A stretch of 64,000 bases of DNA from Spirochaetia bacterium (GCA_963677595.1 OY782041.1:3328001-3392000); one strand, 5' to 3'. Shown: positions 27,655 to 30,435, counted from the first letter of the stretch. Notes: a model not told the origin generated them from the sequence alone. Program-made: numbers and translations.

Positions 27655-30435
27655 TCATTCGGTATCAACGGAATGGTATTGTACCTCCCAGGTCATGGTG
27701 AAGTCTCCCTTGTCGTTATCCGAATAGGTTTGTGTATCGATGAGCTTTGTCCCAGCATATTTCCCGTTGTCATTCATGGCATAGATTTCGTCGCCGGATT
27801 TTCCGATGAACTGAAGCTTACGGTTTGAATCTATAAGATTGTTTTCTCCTAGCATCTCATCCTCATCGACTGTGTATACAATCCTGAATATCTCGTTCGT
27901 ATTTGTTGATGGAATGTCGAAAGATACACCTATCGAGGTCTCATCAATCAATATATCGCCGTCATCAGGTCTCCATGGGTAGTCAAGCGATCGTGTCGTA
28001 ATATCCATGATCTTAGTCCCGTTATCCCCTGCTGAGTACAGATCCGTGTTGATGACGAACTCAGGACTGCCTTCTGAATGGGAGGTGTCATCCCACTGGT
28101 AGGTGATGTCTATAGCGTCAACTTCGATCGTATCAGGATAAGGTGTCGTGATTGATGCATCAGCAGTCCCTGGCCCGTAATAGTAGAACCCGTCCCTGAC
28201 GGCTACCGGCATGATCCTGAAGGAGTACTTACGGTTATAGTAGCTGGCCCGGAAGAAGCTGCCGGCTGAAGTTTCAAGCAATACCGCGCCCTCATCTGTT
28301 GCAGACCAGTAGTAGACGGCAGTCTCCCCTGAATCGTAGACATCGGCAGTCGGGTTCTGCTTGAGTGTCCTCGGCGGCAGCGTCGTCTCTTCGATCTGGT
28401 AGTCAGTGGCTGCTTCTTCCCCGCTGATATAGACCAGGAGGGCTCCGTCAGCCCGGGAATCAGGATAACTGCCCCAGTTGAACCCCAGGTCCATCTGGTA
28501 TTTGCCCCCATCCGTACTCAGCAGTTCATCGATCAGGTCAAGGTTCGTGAAATCCTCGAGCCTAGACTCGATGGTTAGCGTGTAGTCCTTTACCGTATTG
28601 GCATCCTGGGATGTTACCTGGATGGCGAATTCATTCGCCCCGACAGGGATGGTAGTGATCTCATAGGTGTAGAGGGTATCATCCCCAGGGTCCTGGGTCA
28701 TGTCTATTCCGTTGATGGTGACCCCTGCAACCGATTCAAGAACCTCCACCCCGACCTTCACATATTCCCCGGAGATCTCAGCTCCTGTGAAGCTGTAATC
28801 CTCTTCCGTGAACACCCTCTCTGCCGCATGCTTATCGGTCACGGAGACCGAGTAAATATCAGCGGTGGTGTTCGTGGAGAAGGAGACCGGATCGTCATCC
28901 ACACCGTCATCGAACCCGTCGCCGTCAGTGTCTGCCAGAGCAGGGTTGGTATAGACGGTGGTATCATCTGGAAGCGTCCATCCAAGAACCTCATCGACGT
29001 CATCTTTACCATCACCATCCGAGTCTGTCTCGGTATCACTACTGCCGTACAGGTTCTCCATCGACAAAACCAGTCCATCACCGTCCTGGTCCTGTGAGTA
29101 GCAAATATTCACGATATACCCCGGCTCGATGGGAATGGCATCCAAGTCATAGCCATCAGCAGCGGTGTAGAAATCCAGCCCGTCATCCAGGTCCTGGACC
29201 ATGACCAGCCATTGGCTGGAATCGGAAGTATCCTCTGCGATCCCGTTGAATGACGTGATGCGGCCGTCAGCGGAGTCGGTGAGAAAGTCGATCCCCCTGA
29301 CGAGACCCATGTTCTTGAGGATATCGGCAAGGGTGAGGGTGGTATACATCTCTTCCTGGGTCGTGTAGGCAGGGTTATATTTCGTCCTGGCTGCGACGAG
29401 GAACTGTTCGGAGTCCCCGTTTCCGGGTCCAGGTGATACGATGATTTTCGCACATAACCCGGCCACTGTCGTCATCTCCTCGGTGAAATCAGTATCTACC
29501 TCATTTATGGTCATCGAGGATGAGTAGCCGGAGATCGAGAAGATCATCGAAGGACAGGACTGGGCAAGGGCTTCTGCCTGCTCCGGTGAATCGAATTCCT
29601 GGGTGAGCATGAACTCCCCGGAAGGTTTATTTGGGGGGATTGTCATCGATGTGAATCCGTCAATGGTCATGTTCCCGCTTCCGAGCAGGCTGTATTGCCC
29701 GTAGTTGCTGTTGAGCGTATTCATCCGGTAGCCTGAGACCAGCAGGGAGTCAACAGTGAATGCTATGTTGGTGGGGTTATACAGTCTAGCCCCGACGGAG
29801 AGGATCCCCCCGTCATAGGTGATGCTCTGCTCATCGGCATAAGTCTTCGACTGCTCTATGCTCTTCGTATTGCTTTCCGTCTTCTCACTGCCCCAGGAGT
29901 AGCCGCTCTCGACCGTGTATGACCCGCTGTAACCGGTCGTCAGCGAGCAGTTGAACCCTTCAGCCCCGATGCCGTAGCCTACCATCCCTTCGAGGCTCCA
30001 CGCGTTCTCAAGGGACCTCGACTCTGACAATGAGGAAGAGACAGTCGTCTCTGAAGATGCTGAATTGCCTTCCGCGATAGTGAACTCATACTGTTGGGAG
30101 GAGCTGTTCTCCCCGGTAAGCACGATCTCAGGGGTCGTGGTGATCTCCAGCAGGAGTTCAGGCATGTTCGCCAGGAGCGGGTTGAACATGGACCCCATGT
30201 TCACCTCGTCCCCATCGTGCCAGCCGTCCCCATCGGTATCCTCAAGGATAGGGTTAGTGCGCCAGATTGCAGTCTCCTCGCTGTTACTCAGCCCATCCCC
30301 GTCGATATCCTCATCCCGCGAGTCGGGTACCCCGTCCCCGTCAGTATCAGTGGCTCCTGTGTAGTTCATCGGGCAGCCGATGAAGAAGAGACTCACGATG
30401 ATTGCCATGATCATACCGATTAGCTTCCTGGACAT
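27655..30435 (-). CDS. Large acidic lipoprotein with Ca-binding DxDGDG repeats, putative protective-antigen / binary-toxin-B-like pore module and cadherin-like domain
   Basis: Lipobox FFIG-C21 and GGAGG RBS; two clusters of DTDGDG repeats; Ser/Thr-rich alternating beta-hairpin; IQVTSQD...KDYTLTI cadherin-like motif. Confidence 0.75.
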   Translation of the reverse strand: MSRKLIGMIMAIIVSLFFIGCPMNYTGATDTDGDGVPDSRDEDIDGDGLSNSEETAIWRTNPILEDTDGDGWHDGDEVNMGSMFNPLLANMPELLLEITTTPEIVLTGENSSSQQYEFTIAEGNSASSETTVSSSLSESRSLENAWSLEGMVGYGIGAEGFNCSLTTGYSGSYTVESGYSWGSEKTESNTKSIEQSKTYADEQSITYDGGILSVGARLYNPTNIAFTVDSLLVSGYRMNTLNSNYGQYSLLGSGNMTIDGFTSMTIPPNKPSGEFMLTQEFDSPEQAEALAQSCPSMIFSISGYSSSMTINEVDTDFTEEMTTVAGLCAKIIVSPGPGNGDSEQFLVAARTKYNPAYTTQEEMYTTLTLADILKNMGLVRGIDFLTDSADGRITSFNGIAEDTSDSSQWLVMVQDLDDGLDFYTAADGYDLDAIPIEPGYIVNICYSQDQDGDGLVLSMENLYGSSDTETDSDGDGKDDVDEVLGWTLPDDTTVYTNPALADTDGDGFDDGVDDDPVSFSTNTTADIYSVSVTDKHAAERVFTEEDYSFTGAEISGEYVKVGVEVLESVAGVTINGIDMTQDPGDDTLYTYEITTIPVGANEFAIQVTSQDANTVKDYTLTIESRLEDFTNLDLIDELLSTDGGKYQMDLGFNWGSYPDSRADGALLVYISGEEAATDYQIEETTLPPRTLKQNPTADVYDSGETAVYYWSATDEGAVLLETSAGSFFRASYYNRKYSFRIMPVAVRDGFYYYGPGTADASITTPYPDTIEVDAIDITYQWDDTSHSEGSPEFVINTDLYSAGDNGTKIMDITTRSLDYPWRPDDGDILIDETSIGVSFDIPSTNTNEIFRIVYTVDEDEMLGENNLIDSNRKLQFIGKSGDEIYAMNDNGKYAGTKLIDTQTYSDNDKGDFTMTWEVQYHSVDTE

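Follow-up and report, generated by a model that had tools for sequence, protein, structure and literature searches.

We characterized a lipoprotein gene in a 64,000-nucleotide stretch of a Spirochaetia genome (GCA_963677595.1 OY782041.1:3328001-3392000; hereafter the window) whose 926-amino-acid (aa) product has, in its core, the predicted fold of PA63, iota-toxin Ib, CdtB and the Vpb proteins, the pore-forming B components of the anthrax protective antigen (PA) type, without the pro-domain. The gene occurs once in the 4.33-Mb genome. It is one of a family that is patchily distributed among diderm bacteria, and its body is exchanged for another allele between near-identical strains; a previous reading of the window, made from the sequence only, overlooked both the large multi-phylum family and this gene-body swap. 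We propose, with a probability of roughly one half, that the protein is exported and works as a single-component beta-barrel pore against other cells, which it would kill or deter. The N-terminal and core features on which this proposal depends are as follows.

27655..30435, minus strand: the whole gene, a stand-alone open reading frame (ORF) for the 926-aa PA63-like lipoprotein.
30373..30435, minus strand: predicted signal peptide and lipobox, aa 1-21, with putative lipidation at Cys21.
30163..30351, minus strand: first Ca-repeat cluster, aa 29-91, which from aa 40 onward corresponds to PA domain 1' (PA 174).
29092..30318, minus strand: PA63-like core, aa 40-448, with domains 1', 2 and 3, defined by profile matches, Foldseek and structural alignment.
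29812..30108, minus strand: predicted barrel-forming stem, aa 110-208, alternating in Ser/Thr and of low pLDDT in the monomer model.
29926..30000, minus strand: predicted amphipathic membrane-insertion hairpin, aa 146-170, from its alternation score; it aligns with the PA 302-325 region.
29827..29889, minus strand: aa 183-203, a candidate alpha-to-beta switch, helical in the model with a strand-like period-2 pattern.
29605..29640, minus strand: equivalent of the phi-clamp loop, aa 266-277, with Ser272 at the clamp position by sequence register.

The ORF begins with a basic N-region followed by a hydrophobic stretch and FFIG-C21, and the reading frame, lipobox and motifs quoted in the sequence-only reading are all present. 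Searches with the single sequence gave no sign of PA: in Pfam, just TSP3_bac (E 3e-6) and a cadherin-like match below threshold came up, NCBIfam returned Ca-repeat matches only, phmmer against the PDB returned 0 matches, PADLOC had no match for the protein, and a protein atlas yielded no usable match for aa 80-450. A profile of 89 relatives matched PA63 (E 1.4e-6 to 6e-6) as well as C2-II and Vip1, and ran collinearly with PA (profile positions 56-377 with PA 218-533); it paired with PA the same segments that had been matched by eye, namely NPLLANMP, the hairpin, GILSVGARLYN, CAKIIV, EQFLVAA and TLTLADILK. An independent core-only profile, for which the window core was combined with 47 genome loci and the Ca repeats were excluded, found Vpb4Da2 first (2.3e-9) and PA at 2e-6. 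The AlphaFold2 model of the core (pLDDT 84, pTM 0.82) matched Vip1, PA, CdtB and Ib in Foldseek with E 1e-12 to 1e-9, and was aligned to PA over 310 residues with a Z score of 18.3 and a root-mean-square deviation (rmsd) of 3.7 Å, aa 40-449 corresponding to PA 174-596. The structural alignment also covers the domain-3 motif, which lies outside the sequence alignment. With the full-length model (pLDDT 82), the nine best of 48,161 representatives were all binary-toxin B proteins. The PA63-like fold suspected from the sequence is therefore recovered by structure prediction. A match to the Pfam Binary_toxB models, which that reading had named as a check, did not materialize in any of 48 family cores at E 0.05, and PF03495 was matched by the Ca motif alone, in 4 of 40 full-length members.

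PA63 begins at PA residue 168. Since aa 40 falls on PA 174, with only 19 residues between Cys21 and that position, the PA20 pro-domain is absent and a lipobox stands in its place, as had been suggested. Among the 40 full-length members, which were picked for variety and scanned by Pfam, none carries a PA14 pro-domain.

Hydrophobic and small-polar residues alternate at positions 146-156 and 161-169 throughout the family; the alternation score of the hairpin is 0.71 in the window protein, equal to the family median, compared with 0.00 ± 0.22 for shuffled sequences, and it exceeds the 95th percentile of shuffles in 93% of 237 members. The amphipathic hairpin noticed by eye thus stands, and together with the period-2 stem it is kept across sequences that are about 25% identical. 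From the conserved Pro92, 129 residues extend to Asn220 (the median among 239 members is 131), versus 109 in PA, as counted from the alignment, which corresponds to about ten extra residues per strand and a stem about 20 residues longer than that of PA. The PA stem is about 105 Å long. From the residue count relative to PA and to Vpb4Aa2, whose barrel measures 92 Å (PMC13462110), we estimate that the barrel would be roughly 120-135 Å long.

The interior of the putative barrel differs from that of PA at the clamp. The clamp loop has 12 residues, the length in PA, in 178 of 238 members and aligns without gaps to Vpb4Da2, which rules out a loop two residues shorter than that of PA. By sequence register, the clamp position is Ser272 in the ungapped alignment of the core-only profile and Lys270 in the gapped alignment of the 89-relative profile. 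Across the family this position is Ser or Thr in 116 of 228 members and aromatic in only 12, the other 216 being non-aromatic in all; the rarity of aromatics at the neighbouring positions 267-271 and 273 (0-3 each) supports the register. Assuming an unbroken register, 8 of the 46 inferred lumen positions of the window protein are acidic and none is basic.

The segment at aa 183-203 is a helix in both the core and the full-length model, while its family profile combines period-2 small residues (p < 0.0005) with period-3.6 hydrophobicity (p 0.017). Because one of three control segments also has period 2 (p 0.007), this is a hint, not proof, of an alpha-to-beta switch. The predicted helix may lock the stem, rather than the protein being pre-activated.

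Beyond the core, the receptor-binding region of PA is replaced by the following features.

28870..29091, minus strand: second Ca-repeat cluster, aa 449-522, from Pfam-type matches and the family alignment.
28555..28869, minus strand: immunoglobulin (Ig)/cadherin-like sandwich, aa 523-627 (E 2.5e-4, below the cut-off; Z 8-9.4).
28141..28554, minus strand: fibronectin-III (Fn3)-like domain, aa 628-765, of lower confidence (Z 7.5-8.6).
27658..28134, minus strand: C2-like terminal domain, aa 768-926, a candidate target-membrane binder (Z 8.7, rmsd 3.2, 121 aa).

The replacement itself, with a second Ca repeat, a sandwich and further beta domains, had been foreseen; that the last domain is C2-like had been missed. 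The second Ca repeat immediately follows the core in 206 of 210 members, and the domains beyond it vary, comprising LamG, RCC1, WD40, FG-GAP, cadherin, Ig and laminin B among the 40 scanned members. Two members have unusual layouts: in P0252 the core is fused to a CHAT protease domain on its N-terminal side and a LamG domain on its C-terminal side, and a 3120-aa lipoprotein (L160:4481-13843) carries the core mid-protein (aa 1204-1547) in a giant, stalk-like form.

When the core (aa 84-447) was used as query, at least 271 clusters of 50% identity matched with E no higher than 0.001, and 120 at 1e-10. By our own rule, a lipobox is present in 160 of 240 members; the spacing from its Cys to the position of Pro92 has a median of 117 residues and is 110 or less in 78 of the 160, so that half have long spacers. 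Matches were found in 3 of 300 genomes of the phylum of the window, 3 of 60 relatives (0 of 5 from the same family), 13 of 301 Myxococcota, 13 of 151 Fibrobacterota, 16 of 151 Deinococcota and, in one Gammaproteobacteria sample, 8 of 300. The phylum and class counts are floors, because 3-6 candidates were scored per genome, and the last three samples each include a centre genome picked for carrying the family. All genomes sampled were from diderm groups, and within these the family is patchy, being present in 1-10% of sampled genomes of five groups. Collections of plasmids and phages contained no family match. A scan of genome contigs with the core yielded nothing and one with a sub-alignment yielded 77 loci, nearly all Ca-repeat matches (5 were followed); when longer proteins were searched with a core-only profile, just 3 came back, others being crowded out by chance words. 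One Gammaproteobacteria member (L163:7517-11075) is broken across two reading frames. A named relative comes from Spirochaetales, in keeping with the spirochaete origin of the window, and Deferrisoma camini (WP_025322132.1) is a cultured, non-pathogenic carrier.

A further property of the gene is that its body is replaceable as a unit.

27615..30283, minus strand: cassette replaced by another allele in a co-occurring strain, starting at codon 52 and ending some 40 bp beyond the stop (assembly of run X1).

In run X1, which may be the source of the window itself, the flanks have a depth of about 63 and the gene body forks into two contigs that join at 27614 and 30284. One, of 2745 nt at depth 28.6, is identical to the window; the other, of 2781 nt at depth 35.6, has 15 extra nt ahead of codon 428 as well as the two substitutions of codons 438 and 441, in each case as in P0002, a family member identical to the window protein over aa 1-51, including the signal peptide, and 42-77% identical by segment beyond. 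Contig depth does not equal cell share. Because the contigs fork in this manner and the flanks differ at only 1 of 299 and 5 of 313 bases, we conclude that two near-identical strains carry 55%-identical alleles at one site, with promoter, signal and first repeat in common. In run X2, from a second study, a contig of depth 5.8 shares 95% identity with window positions 28131-28503 over the Fn3-like domain and diverges exactly from the C2-like start, past which its codons resemble the P0002 type by eye. This single low-depth contig suggests a natural mosaic, in which exchange would occur at the C2 boundary also.

These features can be assembled into a sequence of events for an outward-directed pore. 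The protein would be exported and, judging from its lipobox, lipidated at Cys21; by analogy, it would be displayed either at the cell surface or on vesicles. Binding to the target surface would fall to the variable C-terminal domains, which in this protein are Ig, Fn3-like and C2-like, and the bound monomers would concentrate and, as expected from the fold, assemble into a 7- or 8-mer. Residues 110-208, including the helix at 183-203, would then refold into the barrel, with the tip at 146-170 spanning the target membrane. With a Ser clamp and an acidic lumen, the presumed outcome is a cation leak, with no threading of an enzyme. Candidate targets are rival bacteria or grazing eukaryotes. Since the anchor is located where the fold has its cap, a pore that is still tethered would face away from the producer membrane. 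We favour the exported single-component pore because it combines a layout of the BSAP type with a small clamp residue of the Vpb4 type and no A gene found beside it. In addition, the allele swap and the patchy distribution fit a conflict gene, and the binding-type C-termini appear to point outward, as do the secreted partners with tails typical of the type IX secretion system (T9SS) that accompany Fibrobacterota members, in which a second export route may operate.

Several observations weigh against this proposal. Self-protection is unexplained, since there is neither an immunity gene nor a pro-domain, and a protease-activation step, as in BSAP-1 and the CDCLs, is not evident for the PA63-like protein. 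Acidic residues outnumber basic ones in the lumen of 209 of 237 members (the same register being assumed), as in translocating members of the fold and unlike the neutral lumen of Vpb4. The C2-like domain has Z 7.5 to two named C2 domains, a middling score (the C-terminal domains overall have Z 7.5-9.4). Allele swapping would also fit a phage receptor or antigen, and surface exposure of the window lipoprotein is presumed by analogy. Lastly, an array of six paralogues at one locus, described below, lacks C-terminal binding domains and could be a self-channel.

The surroundings of the gene bear on the alternatives. The divergent neighbour is a sugar-sensing cluster and the convergent neighbour a 121-aa gene of no family, in agreement with the earlier remark that no A or immunity gene is adjacent. 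The 121-aa gene was considered as a cognate immunity gene and rejected, because it has no signal peptide and is the same beside both alleles. A scan for promoters and terminators gave a result at chance level. The gene has a GC content of 53.1%, with 0.66 at third codon positions (GC3), compared with 56-58% (GC3 0.77-0.84) in flanking genes, and it sits at the edge of a low-GC island (22727-27614; 47% GC versus 54.6% for the genome). The island contains a nucleotidyltransferase, Septu PtuA/PtuB, an AAA-DUF4143 ATPase matching PDC-S01, a helix-turn-helix antitoxin-like gene and the 121-aa gene. Elsewhere in the window, at 16729-17311, a small gene pair resembles, by eye, a RelBE-type toxin-antitoxin module.

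In a comparison of the window with 47 fetched stretches, for which ORF calls were crude, and poor in high-GC loci, no neighbour was retained from phylum to phylum. Pfam scans of 121 of the 175 flanking ORFs (cut-offs of E 1e-4 for 38 and 1e-10 for 83) found no ADP-ribosyltransferase, lethal-factor or oedema-factor family, and the flanking ORFs include no recurrent gene for a transporter, ATPase or cargo. A search of the window's own genome for three A-component families found none, the controls of the same searches being silent. From 44 other stretches, 130 flanking ORFs were compared with PADLOC and 8 matched; five of these are generic kinase, AAA or ABC domains, and specific defence-like neighbours occur at 2 loci.

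Tandem paralogues, in 2-6 copies, occur at five loci. At L019:5039-16514, six paralogues of 604-651 aa, 41-53% identical and devoid of C-terminal domains, are followed by lipoproteins with Kelch/Ig and InlB repeats; their hairpins are very unlike each other, two being rich in Lys, Thr and Glu and barely hydrophobic, which makes the array a candidate hetero-oligomeric pore. At four Myxococcota loci (L149:9363-17579, L157, L158 and L159), three and two tandem paralogues have overlapping ends, with pairs 33-41% identical. Fibrobacterota members have a non-lipid signal with no lipobox, and a small secreted gene precedes them by 9-21 bp in 12 of 15 stretches. These upstream genes (L164-L171, L174-L176, L179) encode 140-370 aa, mostly with a T9SS-like tail; 2 of the 10 scanned match T9SS-tail-type families, and by eye the upstream protein and the pore protein have a short N-terminal beta module in common. 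The partner may possibly serve in piggy-back export or anchoring. A gene with Vps62 and Toxin_10 (aerolysin-type pore) domains lies two ORFs upstream of one member (L172:6047-7912), and a Tc-toxin-type fragment lies near another (L174:1696-2271); these are hints of anti-eukaryote contexts. Downstream of a further member, at a distance of 51 bp, is a lipoprotein protease of the clostripain family (C11; L015:6318-7817), and C11 proteases are known to activate CDCL pores (PMC11169675).

An alternative possibility, which we regard as unlikely, is that the protein forms a channel of the producer's own envelope, in which the lipid anchor would sit in one membrane and the long barrel would cross the periplasm or outer membrane for uptake or export, with alleles swapped to escape phages. 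Such a channel would need neither the missing pro-domain nor an immunity gene, it would make use of a stem some 20 residues longer than that of PA, and the six-paralogue array with its following lipoproteins resembles a hetero-oligomeric machine. It is, however, hard to reconcile with the lack of a conserved transporter, ATPase or cargo gene, with a distribution so rare and patchy that none of the five same-family genomes has a match, and with adhesin- and lectin-type C-termini and T9SS-type partners that point outward.

Next in order, and likewise doubtful, is the possibility that the protein translocates an unlinked cargo enzyme, in the manner of PA, Ib and CdtB, or is dual-purpose like the serine-clamp BECb. 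The sequence-only reading had raised the translocase; the Ser at the clamp position weakens that part of it, while the acidic lumen, as in translocating members, speaks in its favour. The retained Ca-binding domain 1', the 12 aromatic residues that fall at the clamp position, the CHAT protease fusion of P0252 and the fact that BECb translocates despite its serine clamp (PMC13462110) all point the same way. Against this stand the non-aromatic clamp of the great majority of members, the lack of an A-type gene nearby or, as far as searches with silent controls tell, in the genome, and the short lipid tether at the cap, which would crowd the cargo-docking face.

It is improbable that the protein forms no pore and serves as an adhesin or surface scaffold, the PA fold providing only the oligomeric base on which Ca-repeat and binding domains are mounted: two Ca-repeat clusters, adhesin-type domains and allele variation, which is common among adhesins, would suit that role, but a conserved amphipathic hairpin and period-2 stem would be needless for it. 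Least probable is an anti-phage role in which, upon infection, the pore would perforate the membrane of its own producer as a form of suicide, as the position at the edge of an island that contains Septu PtuAB and an ATPase like PDC-S01 might suggest, given the lack of a PADLOC match, the near-absence of specific defence neighbours at other loci and a GC3 of 0.66 unlike the 0.43 of the island PtuA.

The exported single-component pore that we favour is best placed by comparison with known systems. The family named Bacterial_Exotoxin_B (IPR003896 in InterPro) comprises the B components PA, Ib, CdtB, C2-II and Vpb1 (PMC13462110). The present family has in common with it the fold and order of domains 1', 2 and 3, the Ca-binding domain 1', the long stem with an amphipathic hairpin and the acidic lumen. 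It differs in having a lipobox or secreted partner in place of PA14, no A gene found nearby, no aromatic clamp in 95% of members, a longer stem with a predicted helix, a second Ca repeat, and diderm rather than Bacillota hosts, at 12-18% identity. Vpb4 (Vip4) of Bacillus thuringiensis, which has no Phe clamp and kills alone (PMC13462110), is its best profile match and resembles it in the small clamp residue, the variable C-termini and the lack of a nearby A gene, whereas Vpb4 is a soluble protein with a cleaved pro-domain and a neutral, charge-paired lumen (PMC13462110), and the present family has a lipid signal, no pro-domain and an acidic lumen. BECb of Clostridium perfringens, compared by description only, likewise has a serine clamp and an acidic lumen, but it has a cognate A component (PMC13462110), and none is seen for the window protein. 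By analogy, the Bacteroidales lipoprotein toxins of the BSAP (MACPF) and CDCL types also have a lipidated N-terminus, a conserved pore domain, highly variable C-terminal binding domains and strain-level variation (PMC12853789), and CDCLs occur as adjacent paralogues, like the tandem members here; a lipoprotein signal with variable C-terminal domains of this type is predicted in the family. The MACPF/CDC fold is unrelated, the window protein having a PA-like core and no MACPF Pfam match. BSAP-1 is protease-activated, as are the CDCLs (PMC11169675), and BfCDCL has an immunity lipoprotein; neither was found for the window protein. Because the family departs from binary-toxin B proteins in pro-domain, clamp and Pfam match, and from Vpb4 in lumen and pro-domain, we file it as a new branch in neither group. 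Our literature search, which covered mostly papers open without subscription, found no description of the family, although an earlier mention is possible; passages of a review (PMC11359772) and a term search of a nanopore database paper (PMC13397529) gave no mention of it either. A 2026 structure-based survey lists 50 further PA-fold proteins, and the seven genera from which they come include no diderms (PMC13462110).

A broader idea, which is possible but tentative, is that this widespread Gram-negative branch of the PA fold consists of cell-tethered nano-syringes, in which a lipid or T9SS anchor, together with an internal switch from alpha to beta structure, took the place of the cleavable pro-domain. 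The 120-135 Å barrel would be fired into a neighbour on contact and re-aimed by exchange of alleles and C-terminal domains, some loci would encode complement-like hetero-rings of up to six paralogues, and the branch could be an interbacterial origin of the binary-toxin translocases.

Altogether, the PA/binary-toxin-B fold, described from Bacillota toxins that need pro-domain cleavage, here has hundreds of Gram-negative members, environmental and gut, that were missed by Pfam. This opens the questions of how a PA-type pore is restrained without PA20, whether the fold functions between bacterial cells, and which state was ancestral for the translocase. The two natural alleles in near-identical, co-occurring strains offer a ready comparison, and the long, clamp-free barrels with varied lumens are candidate nanopore scaffolds.

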